DNA of 64,000 nt, taken from positions 64,001 to 128,000 of the forward strand of contig JBKAGE010000080.1 of the NCBI GenBank assembly GCA_046290225.1, in the 5' to 3' direction. Source of the DNA: Bradymonadia bacterium (GTDB lineage: Bacteria > Myxococcota_A > Bradymonadia > UBA7976 > UBA1532). Positions within the stretch are counted from its first letter, which is position 1. Each line of letters opens with the position of its first letter. Below, piece by piece: positions 23,147-50,872 of this stretch. Below the pieces are notes generated by a model. That model was given only the letters and a program-made list of their open reading frames with translations. It was not told where the DNA came from and ran no database searches. The position numbers and the translations under genes were made by a program.

Positions 23147-26100
23147 ATGTTCCGTCGGCCATCACACCGCCGCTCGAGCCGGACCTCAGCCTGGGGTGCG
23201 CTGTGCATCGCCACCGCTGCCCTCATCGGTTGTGGCGAAGACATCGAATACAACGATTACAACCTCACGCTCGACATGACCGCCTGCCTCGGGGCCACCC
23301 CGGGCGGCGAGAGCGCCGAAGAGGGTCCGTCGTGTCGAGCCCAGCTCGACCAGACCGTCTCCGACTCTGCAGTGAACGCGTGCATGCTGCTGCGCAACGT
23401 CGAGGCGGATAAAATCGACTACATCCCCCTCTCGTGGCGCAAGGGGGCCGACGCTCAGAGCCCGGGCCGACTGGCCTTCGCCGACGGCGCCAACACCGCC
23501 ATCGAGCTGTCGGTGGGTGCCGTCGTCGAGGCCGAGCTGTACTTCTTCCGCCAGGGCGTCGATGGCGCCCCGCTGTGCGTGAAGGGCGGCGGCCTCGAGA
23601 TGAACGGCGAGTGCACCCCCGACTCCCCGTGCCTGCTCAAGCTCAAGCAGCCCCAGACCGCCATCGCCGGCGGTGAAGACGGCACTCAGTTCGACTTCGG
23701 TCGCCGCGGTGGTGACGGCCAGTGCATCACCGAGGGCTCGCTGATGCCCGCCGGTGACGGCGCCGTCGCCGAGATCTGCGACGGCCTCGACAACGACTGC
23801 GATCTGCAGGTCGACGAAGGCCAGCTGCCCCAGGTGGGCGACAACTGCCCTGAATCCATCGCCGAAGACGGCACCACCCGCCAGGGCATCTGCGCCCCGG
23901 GCAACCTCATCTGCGAGGCGGGCGCCCTCATCTGTCGCAGCGAGACTCTGCCCAATGATCGCGAGCTTTGCGGCAACGGCATCGACGAAGACTGCGACGG
24001 CAACACCGACGAGTCCGATCCCCGCATCTTCTTCACCCCTCCGGGCACCGAAGATCAGCTCATCATGGGCGAGGCCTGCCAGCTCGGTCTCGGGCAGTGT
24101 CTCACCGACGGCATGGTGGTGTGCGACGAGGAGAGCAGCGGCGCCGCCGTGCTCTGCAACGCCGCGCCTCCCCCTGGGGCAGAAGAGGTCTGTGACGCCC
24201 TCGACAACGACTGCGACGGTCGCATGGACGAGGATCTGCTCTACTCCGATCTCGACGTGAACGGGCAGCCCCTCAACCGCAACGTGCCCCTGGGCCGCGT
24301 GTGCACTCAGGGCCTCGGCGAGTGCGAGGCTCAGGGTACCGTGGTGTGCAACCCCGATGGCAACGGCGAGACCATGTGCAACGCCAACGTCATCGAGCCC
24401 ATCGAAGAGATGTGCAACAACCTCGACGATGACTGCGATGGCCAGATCGACGAGACCTTCCCCCTGGGTCAGATGTGCCAAATCGGCAACGGTGAGTGCA
24501 TCTCCCGCGGCGTGCTTGTCTGCACCCAAGATGGCGCCGGTACCGAATGTAACGCGGTGCCGATCCTGCCCGGTGACAACCCGGAGCTCTGCGGTGACAA
24601 CCTCGACAATGACTGTGATGGCATCGTCGACGAGTACCTGAACGGCCGCTTCGAAGACTTCCTCGGTGAAGAGTGCAGCGTGGGCACTGGCGCCTGCTTT
24701 GCTCAGGGCCAGGTGGTGTGCAACGCCGATCGCACCGATGTGGTCTGTGGCGCGGTCGCAGGTGAGCCGGCCCCCAACGACCAGAATTGCAACGGCGTTG
24801 ACGACGACTGTGACGGTGTCAACGACGAGAACTACCCCGAGATCGCCCCTGAAGAAGACTGCGGTGTCGGCGCCTGTGCCGCCTCTGCCCGCTTCATCTG
24901 CGTCGCCGGTGAGGTGGTCAGCGCGTGCCGCAACGGCGAGCCTGCGCCCAACGACGCGGTGTGCAACAGCATCGACGATGACTGCAACGGCGCCGTCGAC
25001 GAAGACTTCCCCTTCACCAACACTACCTGCGGCGTCGGTGAGTGTGTCAGCGCCGGTACGCAGCTGTGCTCCGGTGGTCGGGTCATCGACACCTGTGTGC
25101 CCGGGCAGCCTGCGGTTGCTGATGCGACCTGTGATGGCCGTGACGATGACTGCGATGGCGTCACCGATGAAGACTTCGTCACGAACATCACCCAGTGTGG
25201 CGTGGGCGCCTGCGCTGCCGAGGGTCAGACCCGCTGCGTGAACGGCCGCGTCGAAGACACCTGCACCCCTGCCCCGCCGGCACCGAACGATGCAGTGTGT
25301 GACGGCGTGGACAGCGACTGCGACGCCCGCACCGACGAGCACTACCTCAGCCAGAACACCAACTGTGGTGTGGGCCAGTGCGCCGCCAACGGCCTCACCT
25401 TCTGCGTGAACGGCCAGGTACAGGACTCCTGCCTGCCCGGCCAGCCCGTGGGCAACGACGCCACCTGTGACGGCCGCGACGACGACTGCGACGGCACCAA
25501 CGACGAGGCCTACGTGCGCCTCGACACGCAGTGTGGCATCGGCGAGTGCTTCCGTCTGGGTCGCACCCGCTGCACCAACGGCAGCGTCGTGGACTCCTGC
25601 ACCCCTGCGGCTCCGGCGCAGAACGACGCCAGCTGCAACGGTGAAGACAACGACTGCGATGGCCTCTTCGACGAGAACTTCACCAGCACGCCCACGGAGT
25701 GTGGTGTCGGTGAGTGCTTCAGCCGCGGCCAGACCGTGTGTCAGGGCGGTGTGCCCCTCGACACTTGCGCCGTGGGCCAGCCCGCCAACGATGACGCAGG
25801 CTGTAACGATCGCGACGATGACTGCGACGGTGAGATCGACGAAGACTTCGTGCGGTTCAACACCAACTGCGGCATCGGGGCCTGCGCCCGTCAGGGCTTC
25901 AGTCAGTGCGTCGACGGCAACATCGACCCTGCATGCTTCCCCGGCCAGCCTGAGGACGACGACGCCACCTGCGACGGCGTGGACGACGACTGTGACGGCC
26001 TCACCGACGAGGACTTCGAGCCTGTTCAGGTGAACTGTGGTCAGGGTGCCTGCGCCGCCACGGGCTTCACCACCTGCGTCGGCGGCAACGCGGGCGACAC

Positions 26101-27967
26101 CTGCCGCGAGGACGATCCTGCAGCAGACGACACCACCTGTGACGGTGTAGACGACGACTGCGACAACCGCCTCGACGAGGACTATGTGCAGACGCCCACC
26201 AGCTGTGGTCTGGGCATCTGCGCCGCCGTGGGTACCCTGCGCTGTGTGAACGGCTCCGAGCAGGACACCTGCCAGGCGGGTCAGGCGGAAGGCAACGACG
26301 CTACCTGTAACAACCAGGACGAAGACTGCGACGGCCGCTTCGATGAAGACTTCATCGTCACTGCCACCAGTTGCGGCGTCGGTGAGTGTGCCGCCACGGG
26401 CCTGCGCCAGTGCAACAACGGCGTGGTGCAGAACACCTGTGCGCCGGGCCAGCCTGCGGCCAACGACAACACCTGTGACCTGCAGGATGACGACTGCGAC
26501 GGCCTCAACGACGAGGACTTCCAGAGCCAGAACACCAACTGTGGTGTTGGCGACTGCGCCCGAAATGGCCAGACGCTGTGCCTCAACGGCCAGGTCCAGG
26601 ACTCCTGTACCCCCGGCAACCCCGCCCCCAACGACGCCACCTGTGACGGTGACGACGATGACTGCGACGGCCTCATCGACGAGGACTTCGTGAACACCCC
26701 CACCAGCTGTGGGGTGGGCGAGTGCACCCGCGCCGGTCAGCTGACCTGCGTGAACGGTCAGGTCCAGGACACCTGCACCCCCGGCAACCCCGTGGGCAGC
26801 GACAACAACTGTAATGGCGAAGACAACGACTGCGACGGCCTCATCGACGAGCGCTTCGGCCGCAACGTCAACTGTGGTGATGGCGCCTGTGCCGACTCCG
26901 GCGAGGAGATCTGCGTGAACGGCGAGGTGGTGAACACCTGCCGCGTGGGCGATCCTGCACCAGACGACGCCACCTGTGACGGCGTCGACGATGACTGCGA
27001 TGGCGCCACCGACGAGGACTTCAACGTCATCAACACCAACTGTGGCGTGGGTGCCTGCGCCGCCAACGGCCAGCGTATCTGCTCCAACGGCTCCATCGTC
27101 GACACCTGCACCCCAGGTCAGCCTGCACCGGACGACGCCACCTGCGACGGTGACGACGACGACTGCGACGGCAACACCGACGAGAACTACGACGTCACGC
27201 CCACGAGCTGTGGTGTCGGTGAGTGCGCCGCCACCGGTCAGCTGGTGTGCATCGCCGGCGCCGAGACGGACAACTGCAACGAGGGCGCTCCCGTGGCGGA
27301 GCTGTGCAACGGCCTCGACGACGACTGTGACGGCAGCGTCGACGAGACCTTCGCCAACCTCGGCAACGCCTGCACCAACGGCTTCGGTGCCTGTGAGCAG
27401 GCTGGCGCCTTCGTCTGTAACGGCGATGGCAGCGGCACTGAGTGCAACGCCATCCCTGGTGCCCCCGAAGCCGAAATCTGCGACGGCGTGGACAACGATT
27501 GCGACGACTCTGTCGACGAGAACAACCCCGGCGGTGGTGGCGGATGTACCGCCAACAACGCCGACGGCATTTGCCGCAACGGCACCAGCCTCTGTCAGGG
27601 TGGGGTGCTCATCTGCGCCCCCGGCACCCCCGAGGTCGAGGAGTGTAACGCCCTCGACGACGACTGCGACGGCGAGATCGACAACGTCGCCGGCGCGGGC
27701 AACAACTGCACCACCGGCTTCAACAACCAGTGTGCAGGCAAACTGGAGTGTGTCGGCGTCAACCTGCGCTGCGTGCCCACGAACCCCTCCGCCATCGACT
27801 ACTGTGGCGACGGCATCGACAATGACTGTGACTCCACGGCCGACGATGGTGAGGGACAACCCTGCACCCCCGAAGCGGGGGCGCCGTGTGCCGAAGGTGT
27901 CAACGTCTGTAACGACCAGGGCGACGCCGACGTCACCAACAACGTGCTTGAGTGTCAGTGTCCCTGA
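23147..27967 (+). CDS. Giant Cys/Asp-rich lipoprotein with MopE-related metal-binding repeats
   Basis: Lipobox LIGC; about 24 copies of C[DN]xxD[DNE]DC[DN]G; central period about 56 aa (168 nt). Confidence 0.85.
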   Translation: MFRRPSHRRSSRTSAWGALCIATAALIGCGEDIEYNDYNLTLDMTACLGATPGGESAEEGPSCRAQLDQTVSDSAVNACMLLRNVEADKIDYIPLSWRKGADAQSPGRLAFADGANTAIELSVGAVVEAELYFFRQGVDGAPLCVKGGGLEMNGECTPDSPCLLKLKQPQTAIAGGEDGTQFDFGRRGGDGQCITEGSLMPAGDGAVAEICDGLDNDCDLQVDEGQLPQVGDNCPESIAEDGTTRQGICAPGNLICEAGALICRSETLPNDRELCGNGIDEDCDGNTDESDPRIFFTPPGTEDQLIMGEACQLGLGQCLTDGMVVCDEESSGAAVLCNAAPPPGAEEVCDALDNDCDGRMDEDLLYSDLDVNGQPLNRNVPLGRVCTQGLGECEAQGTVVCNPDGNGETMCNANVIEPIEEMCNNLDDDCDGQIDETFPLGQMCQIGNGECISRGVLVCTQDGAGTECNAVPILPGDNPELCGDNLDNDCDGIVDEYLNGRFEDFLGEECSVGTGACFAQGQVVCNADRTDVVCGAVAGEPAPNDQNCNGVDDDCDGVNDENYPEIAPEEDCGVGACAASARFICVAGEVVSACRNGEPAPNDAVCNSIDDDCNGAVDEDFPFTNTTCGVGECVSAGTQLCSGGRVIDTCVPGQPAVADATCDGRDDDCDGVTDEDFVTNITQCGVGACAAEGQTRCVNGRVEDTCTPAPPAPNDAVCDGVDSDCDARTDEHYLSQNTNCGVGQCAANGLTFCVNGQVQDSCLPGQPVGNDATCDGRDDDCDGTNDEAYVRLDTQCGIGECFRLGRTRCTNGSVVDSCTPAAPAQNDASCNGEDNDCDGLFDENFTSTPTECGVGECFSRGQTVCQGGVPLDTCAVGQPANDDAGCNDRDDDCDGEIDEDFVRFNTNCGIGACARQGFSQCVDGNIDPACFPGQPEDDDATCDGVDDDCDGLTDEDFEPVQVNCGQGACAATGFTTCVGGNAGDTCREDDPAADDTTCDGVDDDCDNRLDEDYVQTPTSCGLGICAAVGTLRCVNGSEQDTCQAGQAEGNDATCNNQDEDCDGRFDEDFIVTATSCGVGECAATGLRQCNNGVVQNTCAPGQPAANDNTCDLQDDDCDGLNDEDFQSQNTNCGVGDCARNGQTLCLNGQVQDSCTPGNPAPNDATCDGDDDDCDGLIDEDFVNTPTSCGVGECTRAGQLTCVNGQVQDTCTPGNPVGSDNNCNGEDNDCDGLIDERFGRNVNCGDGACADSGEEICVNGEVVNTCRVGDPAPDDATCDGVDDDCDGATDEDFNVINTNCGVGACAANGQRICSNGSIVDTCTPGQPAPDDATCDGDDDDCDGNTDENYDVTPTSCGVGECAATGQLVCIAGAETDNCNEGAPVAELCNGLDDDCDGSVDETFANLGNACTNGFGACEQAGAFVCNGDGSGTECNAIPGAPEAEICDGVDNDCDDSVDENNPGGGGGCTANNADGICRNGTSLCQGGVLICAPGTPEVEECNALDDDCDGEIDNVAGAGNNCTTGFNNQCAGKLECVGVNLRCVPTNPSAIDYCGDGIDNDCDSTADDGEGQPCTPEAGAPCAEGVNVCNDQGDADVTNNVLECQCP

Positions 27968-28083
27968 TCACAGTGAACGTGCTCACAGTGACCTGATCAT
28001 CGGGGCCCTTCTCGCTCACACCTCGAACGTGAGGTGTGAGCGAGCCACAGCCCGCTCCCCGCTCTCACAGGATCCATCCTTCC

Positions 28084-30288
28084 ATGAAGAGGCCGCTTTT
28101 CGCTCCCCTGCGAGCTGATCACCTCCTGCCCGAGCTCACCTTGTGTGTGCTGGGGGCGCTCTGCCTCACAGGCTGTTTCACCTTCAGCGTCGATCCCGAG
28201 CTGAGCGACTGCTTCAACGACGATTGCCCGGTGGGCGAGCGATGTGTCGAAGGTGCATGTGCCCCCGTGGTGGATCCTGCAGACATGAGCGATCCACCCG
28301 ACGCGATGCCGATGCCTGCTGACGCATGTCTCGAAGGTTGCGGGATCCCTCAAGCCCCCATTTGCGACACCAACCCCTCCCCCGAGGTCCTCGAGGGCCT
28401 GGTGGAGCTGTGTGGCAACGAGATCGACGACGACTGCGACGGCACCGCCGACGAGGCGGATGACGGTGTGTTCTACCGGCCCGATCCCAACTCGGACATC
28501 AAGCTCGCCCTTGGGGATCCGTGCGCTCTGGGTCAGGGCGTCTGTGCCTCTGAAGGCACCGTGATTTGTGATCCCGATGGCGCAGGCGCCCGCCTGAGCT
28601 GTAACGCCATGGTGGGCACACCTGCCGAGAGCGACATTTGCAACACCCTCGACGATGACTGCGATGGTCGCATCGACGAGGAGACCGACGGCCTCGGCGA
28701 GATGTGTACCTCGGGGTTGGGGCAGTGCCAGCGTGTGGGGCTGTCTACGTGCAACGCCGAAGGCGAAGTGATTTGCGACGCTGAGCCCGGCCCCAGCGGC
28801 CCGGAGATCTGTGACGGTGTGGATCAAGACTGCGACGGCAGCACCGACGAGGACTTCCAGATCGGCGAGCCCTGCTCTGTGGGTGAAGGCGCCTGCCAGC
28901 AGACAGGGGTCTATGTCTGCACGCTCGACAACAGCGCCTCGATGTGTGACGCCCCCGAGCCGGGCATGCCTCAGCCCGAGGTGTGCGACGGCGCCATCGA
29001 TGAAGACTGCGATGGCCGCGTCGACGAAGACTTCGCTGATCAAATCAACCAGCCCTGCACCGTGGGCGTCGGCGCCTGTGAGCGCGGCGGGGTTCAGCTG
29101 TGCGCACCGGATGGTGAAGGCATCGTATGTGGCGTCGAGCCCGGCATGCCCGGCCTCGCCGATCAGACCTGTGACGGCATCGATGACGACTGTGACGGCA
29201 ATGTCGACGAAGCCTACGTCGAGATCGCCCAGACGCTCACGTGCGGTGAGGGCGTCTGTCGCACTGAGGCCCCAACGCAGTGTGTCGAGGCCGCAGTGGT
29301 GGAAGAGTGCACCCCTGGCGAGCCCACGGGCGACGACAGCCTCTGCAACAACATCGACGAAGACTGTGATGGCCGCATCGACGAGGCTGCGGACATCGTC
29401 AACATCGTCTGTGGTGAGGGCGTCTGCGCCGCCAACGGCATCCGCTCCTGTGTGGGCGGCGAAGTCCAGGAAGTGTGCACCCCCGGTGAGCCACGCGGCC
29501 CCGACGGCGATCAGCAACAGTGCAACGCCATCGACGAAGACTGTGACGGCAACATCGACGAAGGGTATGTCGGCGACGAGGTCCGCTGTGGTCTCGGCGC
29601 GTGCCGCACCACCACCACCCTCACATGCCAGAACGGTCAGGTGCTCAACCTGTGTCAACCCGGTGATCCCACGGGCGATGACGACGACTGCGACGGCATC
29701 GACGACGACTGTGACGGCGCCATCGACGAGCGATACCCTCAGACGGCCATCGAGTGCGGCGTGGGCGCCTGCGTACGAGAGGGTGTGCAGCTCTGCACCG
29801 ACGGAGCACCTGTAGACGAGTGCGTGCCTGGCGATCCTGTGGGGGCAGACGACGACTGCAACAACATCGACGATGACTGCGATGGTCTCGTCGACGAGGG
29901 CTATGTCTTTGCAGAGGTCGCGTGCGACGACGGCGCGCGGTGCAGCCTCCGAGGCCGAAGCCAGTGCATCGAGGGTGAAGAGCGCCTCACGTGTCGCGAC
30001 GGTGATCCCATCATCGAGGGCGGCAACTGCAACGGTGTGGACGAAGACTGTGATGGCATCGCTGACGAGGAATACATCGGCGGTGAAGCGTGCGAAGTCA
30101 CAGGTGCCATCGGCGCCTGTGCCCGAGGCACCACCCAGTGCACCGGCGGTCGAGTACAGTGTCGGGTGTCGCGGCCTGATGAAGAGGCCTGCGATGGGAT
30201 CGACAACGACTGTGATGGTCGCGTCGACGAAGACGAGCAGTGTCAGGGGCTACAAGATCCCGAAGCCCCAGTGGATCCCGTCCCCTAG
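28084..30288 (+). CDS. Cys/Asp-rich lipoprotein with MopE-related repeats (paralog of the upstream gene)
   Basis: Lipobox LTGC; about 11 CxxxDxDCDG repeats. Confidence 0.85.
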   Translation: MKRPLFAPLRADHLLPELTLCVLGALCLTGCFTFSVDPELSDCFNDDCPVGERCVEGACAPVVDPADMSDPPDAMPMPADACLEGCGIPQAPICDTNPSPEVLEGLVELCGNEIDDDCDGTADEADDGVFYRPDPNSDIKLALGDPCALGQGVCASEGTVICDPDGAGARLSCNAMVGTPAESDICNTLDDDCDGRIDEETDGLGEMCTSGLGQCQRVGLSTCNAEGEVICDAEPGPSGPEICDGVDQDCDGSTDEDFQIGEPCSVGEGACQQTGVYVCTLDNSASMCDAPEPGMPQPEVCDGAIDEDCDGRVDEDFADQINQPCTVGVGACERGGVQLCAPDGEGIVCGVEPGMPGLADQTCDGIDDDCDGNVDEAYVEIAQTLTCGEGVCRTEAPTQCVEAAVVEECTPGEPTGDDSLCNNIDEDCDGRIDEAADIVNIVCGEGVCAANGIRSCVGGEVQEVCTPGEPRGPDGDQQQCNAIDEDCDGNIDEGYVGDEVRCGLGACRTTTTLTCQNGQVLNLCQPGDPTGDDDDCDGIDDDCDGAIDERYPQTAIECGVGACVREGVQLCTDGAPVDECVPGDPVGADDDCNNIDDDCDGLVDEGYVFAEVACDDGARCSLRGRSQCIEGEERLTCRDGDPIIEGGNCNGVDEDCDGIADEEYIGGEACEVTGAIGACARGTTQCTGGRVQCRVSRPDEEACDGIDNDCDGRVDEDEQCQGLQDPEAPVDPVP

Positions 30289-30324
30289 AGCGCTGATTCA
30301 CAGTCGAACGAGGCAATGGTGAAA

Positions 30325-30817
30325 GCTGGGGCTGTGTAGGCAGTCATCGCTTCGCTCTGCCTGCGTAGGCGCCCGGTCTTCGGCAGCCCTTCGGGCCGCC
30401 TCGTCGGTCGCGTACACGTCGGCACACTCGCTGGCGCGAGCAGGCCTCCGGGTAGGCAGGGTCGCTCAGGGCTGCGCCCTGTTTGCTCGCTCCCCTGCGT
30501 AAAAAGTCAGTTCTGGTGTGGCTTTGGGGGTACTTTCAACGCTATTGGGGCTTACGCCGAACGTTTGATGTTCAGAAGCTTGTACGTTCGCGGCAGGTCG
30601 AGTGCCGGCAGACATCAGCAACAAGATACAGAAGAAGCTCTTTACGCAGGGGAGCGAGCGAGTAAGGCGAAGCCTTGAGCGACCCTGCTTACCCGGAGGC
30701 CTGCTCGCTTCAGCGAGCGTGGCGACGTGTACGCAGCTCCAAGGCGGGCCGAAGGCCGGCCGTCGGCAGCTGCCTACGCAGGCAGAGCGAAGCGATGACT
30801 GCCTTCACAGCCCCAGC
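30325..30817. repeat. Large imperfect fold-back element (REPIN/BIME/MITE-like), copy C
   Basis: Arms 30325-30506 and 30638-30817 are reverse complements (e.g. GGCAGTCATCGCTTCGCTCTGCCTGCGTAGGC / GCCTACGCAGGCAGAGCGAAGCGATGACTGCC); 131-bp core; lies between convergent genes. Confidence 0.9.
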
Positions 30818-30876
30818 CACCTACGGCCGCCCCAGCCCTATTCGACTCTGAATCAAGGCTCTCAAAGGCCCTCACC

Positions 30877-31416
30877 TCAGGGCAACACCATCTCGCAGTT
30901 GTTGGGGAAGGCGCTGCGACCAGCGGTGGTCTCACACAGACAATCCTTGATGGCCAGGTTGGCGCAGCGGCCCGACATCCCACCGAAGTACGTCATGCAG
31001 ATGCCACGCTGAGGCGGACACTGGCGGTTATTGGGGCCACCACACTCCGTCATGTCGTCGCGGACGCAGGCGCCCTCGTCGCAGATGTAGCTCTCAGGGC
31101 AGGGCGTCGCTTCGTCACACGCCTCGCCGAGAGCCTCGCACATGAAGGGGGGGGCTGCGTCGGGCAGCGGCTCAGCGTCGGCGCGGGGCTCGGCATCAGG
31201 CATGGCCTCTGCGTCGGGCACCTCGGCGTCGAGATCCATCTCGCCGCCGGCACCAGCCTCGCCGCCTGCACCTGCTTCACCACCGCCGGCTCCGGCCTCG
31301 CCACCACCGGCACCCGCGACGGCTCCGCCCTCACCACCAGAATCACTGTCGTCGTCACAGCCGACCGTGAGGGCCAAAGCGAGTGACATCCACACCATTG
31401 CGCTCTTGATTTGCAT
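30877..31416 (-). CDS. Small Gly-rich/Cys-rich lipoprotein
   Basis: Lipobox TVGC, GGEAGA repeats, PDAEP repeats, Cys-rich C-terminus. Confidence 0.75.
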   Translation of the reverse strand: MQIKSAMVWMSLALALTVGCDDDSDSGGEGGAVAGAGGGEAGAGGGEAGAGGEAGAGGEMDLDAEVPDAEAMPDAEPRADAEPLPDAAPPFMCEALGEACDEATPCPESYICDEGACVRDDMTECGGPNNRQCPPQRGICMTYFGGMSGRCANLAIKDCLCETTAGRSAFPNNCEMVLP

Positions 31417-43862: not shown

Positions 43863-44822
43863 ATGTACGCCGCCACACTCGAAGACATCCGCGCCGCACG
43901 AGCGCGCATCGCAGGCCACGCCCACGTGACCCCGGTCATGACCTGCGCCGCTCTCGACGCCCTCGCCCATCGCTCGCTCTTCTTCAAATGCGAGCATCTG
44001 CAAAAGGTGGGGGCCTTCAAGTTCCGGGGCGCGGTGAACGCGCTGTCCAAGCTCAAAGAAGCGCCAGGGCCGACCCCTGAGGCCGTGGTGACGCACTCCA
44101 GCGGGAACCACGCCCAGGCCGTGGCCCTCGCGGGGCGCACGCTGGGCTTCGAAGCCCACATCGTGATGCCCACGTCGGCGCCCACTGTGAAACGTCAGGC
44201 CGTAGAGGGTTACGGGGCGCGGGTGTACCCCTGCGCCCCGGTGCTTGAGGCACGTGAGAGCACGGCGGCCCAGGTGGTGGCTGAGACTGGAGGGGTGCTG
44301 ATCCCCCCGTACAATCATCCCGACGTCATCGCTGGTCAGGGCACCATCGCCCTGGAGCTGCTTGAGCAGGTTGCCGATCTCGACGCGGTGATCGTGCCCG
44401 TGGGCGGTGGCGGCATGATCTCGGGCATCGCCCTGGCCCTTCGAGAGGCGGCCCCCCACGTTCGGGTGTTCGCTGCGGAGCCTCTCGGCGCCGATGACGC
44501 AGCCCGCTCGAAGGCGGCGGGGCGTCTGATCCCCCAGACCGGCCCCGACACCATCGCCGACGGGCTGCTCACCAGCCTCGGCGATCTCACCTGGCCGGTG
44601 ATCCGCGACGTGGTCGAGCAGGTGATCACGGTGAGCGAGGCGGCCATCGTAGAGGCGATGTCCCTTGTATGGAGCCGTATGAAGCAGGTGGTGGAGCCCA
44701 GCGCCGCAGTGTCCCTCGCTGCGGCCCTCTCAGATGAATTTCGGGCCATTTCGGGGGTCAAGCGGGTGGCCCTGGTGCTGTGCGGAGGCAATGTCGACCT
44801 GAGCGCGTTGCCATGGGGATAG
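43863..44822 (+). CDS. Serine racemase / threonine dehydratase-type PLP enzyme
   Basis: FKCEHLQKVGAFKFRGA, SSGNHAQA, GQGT, VGGGG, EPSAA, CGGNVD. Confidence 0.9.
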   Translation: MYAATLEDIRAARARIAGHAHVTPVMTCAALDALAHRSLFFKCEHLQKVGAFKFRGAVNALSKLKEAPGPTPEAVVTHSSGNHAQAVALAGRTLGFEAHIVMPTSAPTVKRQAVEGYGARVYPCAPVLEARESTAAQVVAETGGVLIPPYNHPDVIAGQGTIALELLEQVADLDAVIVPVGGGGMISGIALALREAAPHVRVFAAEPLGADDAARSKAAGRLIPQTGPDTIADGLLTSLGDLTWPVIRDVVEQVITVSEAAIVEAMSLVWSRMKQVVEPSAAVSLAAALSDEFRAISGVKRVALVLCGGNVDLSALPWG

Positions 44823-45192
44823 CGGACGGTCATCGCCTTACGGCGACAGCCTGTAGCGGACGCCTGCTTCGCAGAGCTGTAGCGGACGCTCATTTGCCTT
44901 CGGCAAATTCCCTGTAGCTTTTTGAAGATCAGTTGAGGGGACGTGTGTGGGTTCATCTACCGCAAACGCTGGTGGCCCCTGACGCACCAGTTCCGGCGTA
45001 AGCCCCGACCTGGGTTGAGAAACCCACCAGCAACACCATAACTCTCTGAAAAAGCTACAGCTCCGGCTGCCGGAGGCAGACTCGGCGTCCGCTACAGCTC
45101 TGAGCCAGCGCAGCTGGTTCAGGCGTCCGCTACAGGCGCAGCGCAGCTGGGCCGTCCGCTACAGGCGGTGCCAAAGGCACGGCCGTCCGCTC
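44820..45192. repeat. Modular REP-like fold-back element, copy A
   Basis: CTGTAGCGGACG at 44851 and 44877 (partials at 44820, 44912); inverted CGTCCGCTACAG at 45086, 45124, 45153 (partials at 45053, 45184); hairpin spacers; 133-bp core. Confidence 0.92.
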
Positions 45193-45310
45193 GATTAATT
45201 CCAGCATTTCGGTCGAAAAACCGTGAACCCATCGGGCCATTTGGTTCATCGTTGCTCAGTGGTACAGGCAAAGGCCCGTACCAGCTCAGACCCCACATCG
45301 GAGTGAATCC

Positions 45311-50167: not shown

Positions 50168-50172
50168 TGGTG

Positions 50173-50585
50173 GAGCGGACGGCCGTGCTTGCGCACCGCC
50201 TGTAGTGGACGGCCGTGCTGCGCACCGCCTGTAGCGGACGCCTGAACCAGCTGCGCCTTGCAGAGCTGTAGCGGACGCCGAGTCTGCCTTCGGCAGCCTG
50301 AGCTGTAGCTTTCTAAGAGACTTTTGGTGTGGCTGGTGGGTTTCTCAACCCAGGTAGGGGCTTACGCCGGAAGTGGTCTGTCAGGGGCCAACAGCGTCTG
50401 CGGAAGATGAATCTACACACGCCCCCCTCAACTGATCTTCAAACAGCTACAGGGAATTTGCCGGAGGCAAATGAGCGCCCGCTACAGCTCTGAGCCAGCG
50501 TAGCTGGTTCAGGCGTCCGCTACAGGCTGTCGCCGTAAGGCGATGACCGTCCGCTACAGGCGGCCCAAAGGGCGGCCGTCCGCTC
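50173..50585. repeat. Modular REP-like fold-back element, copy B (inverted relative to copy A)
   Basis: Perfect 13-bp terminal inverted repeats GAGCGGACGGCCG / CGGCCGTCCGCTC; internal CTGTAGCGGACG modules; 134-bp core is the reverse complement of the copy A core with scattered substitutions. Confidence 0.92.
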
Positions 50586-50872
50586 AGCCCGCGATCCAGC
50601 CGAGCATGGCGGTCAACCCACACATCGCGACGCAACCGACAAGCAGGGTGCCTGCAGGGCCGGTGACATCGATCATTCGGGTGTAGCGTACATGCAAGGT
50701 CTTCAGGCTGCTCATCATCTCGCCTTTTGGGCAGTCGTTTCACCAGAGCGCTTAGCATGTGACATGCCAGATGGGCAGGTGTCGAGTTTTCAAGGGGATG
50801 GCGGCCTCGCCGTGAGGCCAATGCTTTTTAAAGCATCTTTTTTATCTACTGTGCTGTGATTTACAGCATCAT

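Follow-up and report, generated by a model that had tools for sequence, protein, structure and literature searches.

Element C and its copies in the genome

The question raised by this locus is what has been conserved in a 0.5-kb non-coding palindrome whose two arms differ in part of their sequence, and whether its structure acts in DNA or in RNA. The palindrome, named element C, lies between a gene for a MopE-type cysteine-repeat protein (stop codon at 30286-30288) and a convergent gene ending at 30877, within a 64,000-nt stretch of DNA (G000:C80:64001-128000) that we call the window and whose numbering is used throughout. The genome comprises 8.58 Mb in 83 contigs, has a GC content of 64%, and is 99.4% complete. 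The arms of element C are 98% complementary at 30325-30370/30772-30817 and 85% complementary at 30410-30515/30629-30734. The adjoining region 23147-30288 encodes two adjacent large proteins of 56-residue cysteine/aspartate repeats with a MopE-type metal-binding motif.

BLAST searches of the genome revealed 54 C-like loci and 50 loci similar to element A, a second palindrome of the window. Both outer modules of the palindrome were present in 41 of the 54 C loci, and in 36 of these they were 466-474 nt apart. Two more arm families, hexamer-armed and "F," were obtained from a scan for local inverted repeats in the genome. According to crude gene calls, 18 of the 41 C copies were located between convergent genes (background, 1120 of 5838 gene pairs), 20 between co-oriented genes, and 3 between divergent genes. 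A genome-wide 16-mer family beginning AGTGCTGGGG was also noted, with 84 occurrences.

Copies of C are placed just after stop codons, and 16 of 50 distances between an outer tag and the neighbouring stop codon were 45-60 nt. Beyond the outer tag on each side lies an eroded flank of ~50-55 nt, which often runs to the neighbouring stop codon, so that the element is longer than the palindrome first described. In the window copy, the left flank (30286-30335, ~50 nt, plus strand) begins with the stop codon that ends the upstream MopE-repeat gene and is a degenerate copy of the family-wide outer consensus, and the right flank (30807-30860, plus strand) contains 11 nt perfectly complementary to the left one. 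Conservation of the outer flanks was 0.3-0.5 and the termini were not sharp. The two flanks of one copy were identical by complement over at least 20 nt in 12 of 41 copies, compared to 0.4% of between-copy pairs. A heptamer periodicity in the outer flank of C was not evident by inspection.

None of the 41 C copies showed a target duplication (0-3 nt at the palindrome boundary), and no empty site was found. Searches at the DNA level gave no homologue of C in 60 genomes of relatives, the core pattern had no match in 400 genomes of the phylum, the module pattern had none in five genomes of the same taxonomic family, and no C-like sequence was present in the metagenome contigs, viral contigs, or plasmids searched. 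The only matches outside this genome were three short C-arm contigs from a single DNA run that also held a near-identical contig of a neighbouring gene. As there was no target duplication, no empty site, and no copy in the 60 relatives, the mobility of C is deduced from its copy number alone.

Internally deleted C copies, in which both arms are joined at a tag or loop, were observed at G000:C49:68290-68398, C77:70776-70904, C49:26734-27041, C13:12272-12303, C50:73487-73529, and C14:29027-29224; the smallest retains a lone module flanked by GTAG and CTAC. A mini C element consisting of one module, at G000:C79:179915-179946 (L256:2698-2730), lies between two convergent genes for retron-like reverse transcriptases, a position that is probably just another convergent gene junction.

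The arms are mosaics of four hairpin modules

Genome-wide, 96 outer modules were found, and 81 arms could be parsed into four modules; the remaining 15, being truncated, miniature, or variant, did not enter any of the counts. Each arm has the plan GTAG-M1, GTAG-M2, GTAC-M3, GTAG-M4, followed by GTAA and the core, and the opposite arm is the inverse. The GTAG tag preceded modules 1, 2, and 4 in 78 to 80 of the 81 arms, with GTAC as the tag of module 3. In the left arm of the window copy, all four hairpins are on the minus strand. Module 1 (30336-30364) has its GTAG tag on the plus strand and pairs on the minus strand with tandem G·A and a GAA loop; module 2 (30365-30411, class b) has a GTAG tag, tandem G·A, one G·T, and a GAA loop; module 3 (30412-30451) has a GTAC tag, T·G/G·T pairs in the stem, and a GCCA tetraloop; and module 4 (30452-30498) has a GTAG tag, two tandem G·A units, and an inner stem with a GCA loop. 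The core with its GTAA/TTAC ends (30499-30645) is non-coding and has conserved blocks at 30514-30522, 30547-30559, and 30586-30596. The right arm follows on the plus strand, with module 4 (30646-30692; GAA loop, GCGAAGC at 30667, tag here TTAC), module 3 (30693-30732; GTAC tag and a TTCA tetraloop, one of 15 tetraloops deviating from GNNA), module 2 (30733-30777, class a; GAA loop, CTAC tag), and module 1 (30778-30806), which reads GA-GCGAAGC-GA with GCGAAGC at 30787 and whose tag is mutated to CTTC.

Tags and spacers are near-invariant, while the modules occur in two to four allele classes that are freely combined. All 81 parsed arms were distinct. In ten of ten tested site pairs, each of the four possible combinations of alleles occurred, and this was true even within 13 nt of module 1. 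Chimeric assembly among repeats could in principle have generated this mosaic as well as the gene-bearing C77 copy and the hybrid copy described below, and it would agree with 81 distinct arms in which adjacent modules are nearly unlinked. We regard this as scarcely credible, since recombinant patterns are found within 13 nt, a side bias persists (module 2 class a occurred 24 times in left and 5 times in right arms), and an unrelated run yielded a 172-nt arm contig differing by the same stem-preserving alleles. Furthermore, the loop and pair rules reported below hold within single modules, whatever their order.

Loops and mismatched pairs are fixed to one strand

The initial annotation had proposed that GNA triloops occupy one defined strand per arm and that A and B, the two related elements of the window, obey the same rule. 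All motifs on which it relied are present: GCCC-TTC-GGGC at 30386, GGCC-GAA-GGCC at 30747, AGGGC-TGC-GCCCT at 30468, AAGGC-GAA-GCCTT at 30664, GCGAAGC at 30787 and also at 30667, and the A/B hairpins at 44892/50456, 45067/50284, and 45105/50495. When the loops of the 81 arms were tabulated by strand, the GNA bias held genome-wide. Among 324 loops (218 triloops and 106 tetraloops), 211 of the 218 triloops were C-GNA-G, all of them on the strand reading from the core outward. The rule as first worded was incomplete, because tetraloops follow it too: 91 of 106 were GNNA (73 GNYA and 18 GNRA), again all on the strand reading from the core outward, and all 106 ended in A. No GNA or GNNA loop was found on the opposite strand of the 81 arms, and no tetraloop was UUCG in register. 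Outside the elements, a GNA loop or its complement was present in 113 of 1861 perfect 6-bp triloop hairpins closed by C-G.

The other families gave a comparable picture. In family A, 166 of 214 triloops were GNA (205 were NNA) and 43 of 51 tetraloops were GNNA, with a single complement on record for this family. The ends of the hexamer family carried GC-GNA/GNNA-GC in the outward direction in 81 of 123 cases and in the opposite direction in none. In the D modules (29 of 29), a further hairpin type introduced below, and in the F modules, the loop polarity relative to the core was opposite to that of C, i.e., on the inward strand.

The stems showed the same strand preference. Read on the loop strand, 2673 stem cells comprised 2051 Watson-Crick pairs, 366 G·A (mostly tandem GA/GA), 161 G·T, 42 G·G, 27 A·A, 14 T·T, 8 A·C, 3 T·C, and 1 C·C. 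Counted by distinct types, the contrast shrinks to 9 G·T versus 7 A·C, and to 5 versus 0 for types seen at least three times. At ten stem positions, two or more Watson-Crick types were each seen at least six times, as for pair 5 of module 1 (43 A-T, 34 G-C, 3 G·T, 1 A·C). As the copies are related and the swaps occur in two to four allele classes per module, these double-sided swaps represent about a dozen independent events rather than hundreds.

RNA prefers GNRA and UUCG loops. According to the part of PMC10085684 consulted, DNA forms stable GNA triloops and GNNA tetraloops, which are closed by sheared G:A. The loop set of C, with its GNA triloops, 73 GNYA tetraloops, and no in-register UUCG, thus appears to be a DNA-stable rather than an RNA set, an assignment that is supported at the sequence level.

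Local hairpins are conserved rather than the long fold-back

The proposal that local hairpins are conserved and not the long fold-back was borne out by the double-sided swaps within modules and by the allele content of the two arms. In the inner modules, the same allele was found in both arms of one copy more rarely than in shuffled pairs (8 of 35 versus 14.3 for module 2, 7 versus 10.8 for module 3, 4 versus 11.7 for module 4), whereas the outer module 1 pair was shared more commonly (22 versus 15.6); the shuffle p values of 0.003-0.04 are overstated, as the copies are kin.

For the further claim that selection acts on single-stranded DNA hairpins, the evidence was divided. The strand-fixed DNA-type loops and the conserved local stems are in favour, but nearest-neighbour folding of the whole strand predicted the long fold-back both as DNA (-215.6 kcal/mol) and as RNA (-374 kcal/mol), so that local hairpins would require one arm to be exposed alone or kinetic folding. 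Since DNA and RNA parameter sets favoured the same strand, the energy cannot tell DNA from RNA. A cruciform, which had been suggested as one substrate, fits poorly, because the outer stems pair through G·A and G·T on one strand only. Taken together, the C arms probably represent hairpins acting in single-stranded DNA, for which the sequence evidence provides good support.

An action of the structure in RNA, as a bidirectional terminator, an mRNA stabiliser, or a stem cut by RNase III like the rRNA intervening sequences (IVS) that contain the gene described below, appears unlikely. It would suit the position of 38 of the 41 copies, which are convergent or co-oriented and hence downstream of genes, the location of the stable arm as the 3′ one on each strand, and the high stability of the long fold-back as RNA. 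Tandem G·A and G·U pairs are RNA features as well, 33 of the 51 family-A tetraloops are GNRA, and IVS elements with the four-helix-bundle gene are described as RNase III substrates in the sections of PMC4990558 at hand. However, triloops dominate in C with their register fixed by the stems, only 18 of its 106 tetraloops are GNRA, and the two arms differ at places where a stem cut by RNase III would be expected to keep them identical. There was also no Rfam match and no covarying fold with GNRA or UUCG loops. Contigs of an RNA run did not include the element, a result that carries no information about its expression.

We also considered that the hairpins are a by-product, with quasi-palindrome template switching repairing stems, stable loops persisting, and gene conversion homogenising modules in the absence of a dedicated protein; small cruciforms may form in this case. 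The copy-specific matching of flanks and the four allele combinations within 13 nt do point to templated mutation or short conversion tracts. As a full account this is nevertheless very unlikely, as it leaves unexplained the fixed module number, the core length, the near-invariant tags, the one-strand G·A and G·T pairs, and the location of both genes described below in arms.

Cores and related elements

With its ends, the C core measures 144-147 nt in 37 copies, with a mean identity of 85%. Homology of this core to that of A (23 copies) was evident from a local score of 65, versus 42 for the best of 1000 shuffles. All 74 matches of a core profile adjoined C or A arms, one of them between an A arm and a C arm; this hybrid element (G000:C82:48338-48770) has a family-A arm on one side, a family-C arm on the other, and an intermediate core. 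Because 1-nt indels are common and the variability lacks a 3-periodicity, a coding core was rejected. A structured RNA core was rejected for lack of covariation, with at most one pair showing two Watson-Crick types on either strand. No remnant of a four-helix-bundle gene was found in the cores.

Family A/B has the same plan as C with another sequence, in which CT-GTAG-CGGACG stands before each hairpin. In the window it is represented by element A (44816-45195, plus strand), which consists of tandem modules of this kind around the homologous core and is truncated at its left end, and by element B (50171-50590, minus strand), a full copy. The idea that A and B are the ends of a 5-kb composite element was discarded, as both are palindromic units complete in themselves and only ordinary genes separate them.

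Several elements contain insertions or cargo. A C core (G000:C34:360961-361136) and an A core (G000:C78:372744-372905) are each interrupted by one and the same ~162-176-nt MITE, which has TA ends and terminal inverted repeats of ~20 nt; an internal ~30-nt word of this MITE recurs at many other places in the genome. An IS4-like transposase gene, labelled from its sequence, lies inside the intact core of a hexamer-armed element (G000:C50:55559-57127). At G000:C36:153145-154952, long inverted F-type arms surround three genes, one of which is SMR efflux-like by sequence, showing that arms can bracket other cargo. One or both arms of some hexamer elements contain one to three tandem copies of the ~101-nt "D" hairpin module with GNA loops on the inward strand (G000:C72:82345-83283, C1:38643-39190, C48:69762-70299, C55:124-734).

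REP-like features and the search for a RAYT

The initial annotation had suggested an HUH substrate, for which no support has emerged so far: neither a Y1/RAYT nor a Y2 gene was found in the 99.4%-complete genome. The RAYT/Y1 profiles PF01797 and NF047646 had no match, and tblastn with 32 reading frames from Y1 loci of relatives detected no Y1 gene. Y2 also had no match, in a search whose control likewise gave none. There were no matches for DUF559 or GxxExxY, and the single GIY-YIG match was a 625-aa frame, which judging from its length is likely UvrC. No transposase was found between C or A arms. Of 77 Y1 loci in 11 other genomes of the order, 30 were inspected, and none had long inverted arms or C/A-like sequence.

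These results bear on the possibility that C and A/B are orphan REP/BIME/REPIN arrays of a lost or gap-hidden RAYT (HUH Y1), with the gene described below captured once into a palindrome apex, in the way that rRNA stem-loops acquire intervening sequences. The REP features are genuine. GTAG stands directly 5′ of imperfect palindromes of 25-45 nt, the elements are multicopy, extragenic, and located downstream of genes or, in the excess given above, between convergent genes, and tags outside with a conserved spacer correspond to the "HH" rule in the portion of PMC3733652 available. CT, the RAYT cleavage dinucleotide, precedes every internal tag in family A. The variable self-complementary sequence 5′ of the tag resembles REPIN spacers as presented in passages of PMC3337134. 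Several contigs of the 83-contig assembly end in C/A-type elements. The strand polarity does not exclude a RAYT either, since according to excerpts of PMC3479197, A·C/A·G mismatches and a T-rich loop are likewise found on the strand of E. coli REPs to which TnpA binds; by the same example, the strand read by a protein need not be the more stable one.

Against the orphan REP reading, no RAYT was found by two profiles or tblastn in the 83 contigs, the Y1 loci of relatives lack C/A-like arms, and two independent captures would be needed for both genes to lie in arms. A REPIN consists of two inverted REPs with a spacer completing one hairpin, whereas C has four tandem head-to-tail modules per arm, with GTAC before module 3, around a core that is not palindromic. 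For these reasons we did not file element C as a REP or REPIN and consider this origin possible yet doubtful. In terms of likeness, C shares with REP/BIME/REPIN (PMC3733652, PMC3337134, PMC3479197, and PMC8266576, each as far as accessible) the 5′ GTAG, the outside tags, the intergenic location downstream of genes, and the allele mosaic. It differs in that the four modules of an arm are unlike one another, a ~140-nt core is common to two arm families, the genome searches detected no RAYT, and a four-helix-bundle gene is the only cargo.

A four-helix-bundle gene between inverted arms

In the C copy at G000:C77:107024-107840, the core is replaced by a gene for a four-helix-bundle protein (23S-IVS protein). 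Two PF05635/TIGR02436 genes are present in the genome, each enclosed by long inverted arms, which are of C type in one case (C77) and of hexamer type in the other (C72). The C77 gene is frameshifted and split near its start; the C72 gene is intact, with arms composed of hexamers plus hairpin modules. The two proteins are only 40% alike over 48 aa, and the C77 insert and the C core are unrelated in sequence. Among 119 paired arms surveyed (39 C, 31 A, and 49 hexamer), these two were the only core-replacing genes, so that none of the 31 paired family-A elements bears a gene.

In C77, the arm is separated from the gene by 179 nt up to the start of the match and by 28 nt after the stop codon, within the 10-90% range of 64 heptamer-armed relatives (109-217 and -22 to 44, respectively). 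Across phyla, inverted arms were found at 40 of 78 loci of foreign relatives of the gene, compared to 0 of 69 distal controls (two loci were too short). In other genomes of the taxonomic family, 8 of 12 loci of the gene had an inverted repeat, one of which is probably an IS end. Nearly all foreign arms are simple 7-mer runs, and no C-like hairpin array was found at 80 foreign loci. The 7-mer units include TAGCGGA, the tag word of family A, at two loci (L102 and L112). Arrays of (GTAGGCA)n, the tag word of C, flanked the gene and pointed inward in 3 of 80 metagenome loci with (GTAGGCA)3; the other 77, including all 33 with full flanks, had no four-helix-bundle gene. A gene-less inverted partner was present at 22 of 63 (GTAGGCA)n metagenome loci.

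Based on these data, we see about even chances that element C is a gene-less form of a four-helix-bundle cassette with REP-like, single-stranded DNA hairpin arms, a reading for which we infer folding, protein binding, and mobility. That the cognate factor of the C arms is the four-helix-bundle protein could equally well be true or false. It counts against the cassette reading that the link of C to the gene is one locus, C77, and that the gene there is frameshifted. Further counterarguments are the gene-less state of family A, the simple 7-mer arms at foreign loci, the 77 (GTAGGCA)3 loci devoid of the gene, the dissimilarity of core and C77 insert, the other cargo within F-type arms, the long fold-back predicted for the whole strand, and the inverted loop polarity of the D and F modules. 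Because of the frameshift, family C may have lost its activity by now, or the intact gene found in the hexamer family may serve it.

Proposed mechanism and implications

In the mechanism that we envisage for the cassette reading, one arm would become exposed as single-stranded DNA, either on the lagging-strand template or on the strand displaced behind RNA polymerase, and its fast-folding mini-hairpins would form before the long fold-back can. A protein, with the pentameric four-helix-bundle protein as candidate, would bind the hairpin array, and a putative nuclease or strand-transfer activity would copy the unit to the ends of genes. In the course of copying or thereafter, the two outer ends might pair by fold-back and thereby equalise the flanks of each copy, and the differing inner alleles might keep the arms from turning into one long perfect palindrome.

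By analogy, we tentatively suggest, while rating it rather improbable, that 23S-IVS proteins are binders of single-stranded DNA hairpins of transposase-free palindromic elements, one per arm family, with the strand-fixed GNA/GNNA loop code as the recognition signal. If they served their own arm families as RAYTs serve REPINs, a second system of non-HUH type could spread GTAG-tagged REP-like arrays, with a parallel in Avd and the GRNA hairpin of diversity-generating retroelements (DGRs); we take Avd to be a four-helix-bundle pentamer like this protein. Two puzzles meet here, namely, how REP-like repeats multiply without a RAYT and what role the widespread "23S rRNA IVS protein" has. The DNA-type loop code argues for a single-stranded DNA step where the name of the protein suggests RNA. 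About 80 natural arms, in which stem shape, tags, and loop polarity are constant and the sequence is varied, represent ready substrates. If the gene was merely captured, there would still be clear conservation of single-stranded DNA hairpins in a RAYT-less repeat family.

A literature search, mainly of open-access papers, gave no paper that connects this protein family to flanking repeats at sites other than rRNA and no description of such hairpin arrays; a matching GTAG family may be among the 24 consensus families of PMC3733652, a source covered in part. The hairpin-array form of the cassette arms with a strand-fixed DNA loop code is new here.

Comparison with other known systems

The ORF-bearing 23S rRNA intervening sequences (S23p/23S_rRNA_IVP, PF05635, TIGR02436; PMC4990558, in the sections at hand) likewise encode a member of this protein family within a loop that a long inverted repeat encloses. 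A four-helix-bundle ORF within terminal inverted repeats is present in one C copy (frameshifted) and one hexamer copy and absent from the window copy. The elements differ from the intervening sequences in that the window, C77, and C72 copies lie between protein-coding genes and not in an rRNA helix, the arms are ~170-nt series of mini-hairpins whose loops are of DNA type, in place of an RNA stem of 28 bp, and dozens of copies are gene-less. A solved relative of the four-helix-bundle protein, PDB 2GSC, is a pentamer of four-helix bundles with no known function according to the same sections, and the protein is not known to act as a nuclease.

DGRs depend on a hairpin in DNA whose loop is fixed as GRNA, and the target hairpin/cruciform (PMC3240598, in the excerpts consulted) offers an analogy to C, with a GC-rich stem free in sequence, a loop fixed in size and polarity, and an action at the DNA level. 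Unlike in a DGR, no template or variable repeat was recognized in a reading of the locus, and the loops of C are GNA/GNNA and mostly not GRNA. The only two reverse transcriptase matches of the genome are both retron-like, and in the locus as read no such repeats accompanied a reverse transcriptase next to the hairpin.

Bacterial MITEs are non-autonomous elements of fixed length with terminal inverted repeats and tens of copies, and C resembles them in all of these properties. In contrast to MITEs, C has no target duplication, its ends are eroded and copy specific instead of sharp, conservation lies inside the arms and not at the tips, and no autonomous partner with a transposase was found between C or A arms.

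Heptamer- and hexamer-armed four-helix-bundle cassettes resemble the elements described here in the equal distance from the gene to the inverted arms on either side of it and in having numerous copies devoid of the gene; the tag words GTAGGCA and TAGCGGA serve elsewhere as arm units. The C arms differ from these in being hairpin arrays with single tags between modules and not simple tandem 7-mers. Two further observations were made at foreign loci of the gene. In several genomes of the taxonomic family, a short motif ending in GTCCGA recurs between the arm and the start codon (L016, L017, L020, L021, and L022), and a four-helix-bundle gene of Gemmatimonadales has non-tandem, REP-like palindromic arms (L092:950-1000 and 1440-1700).
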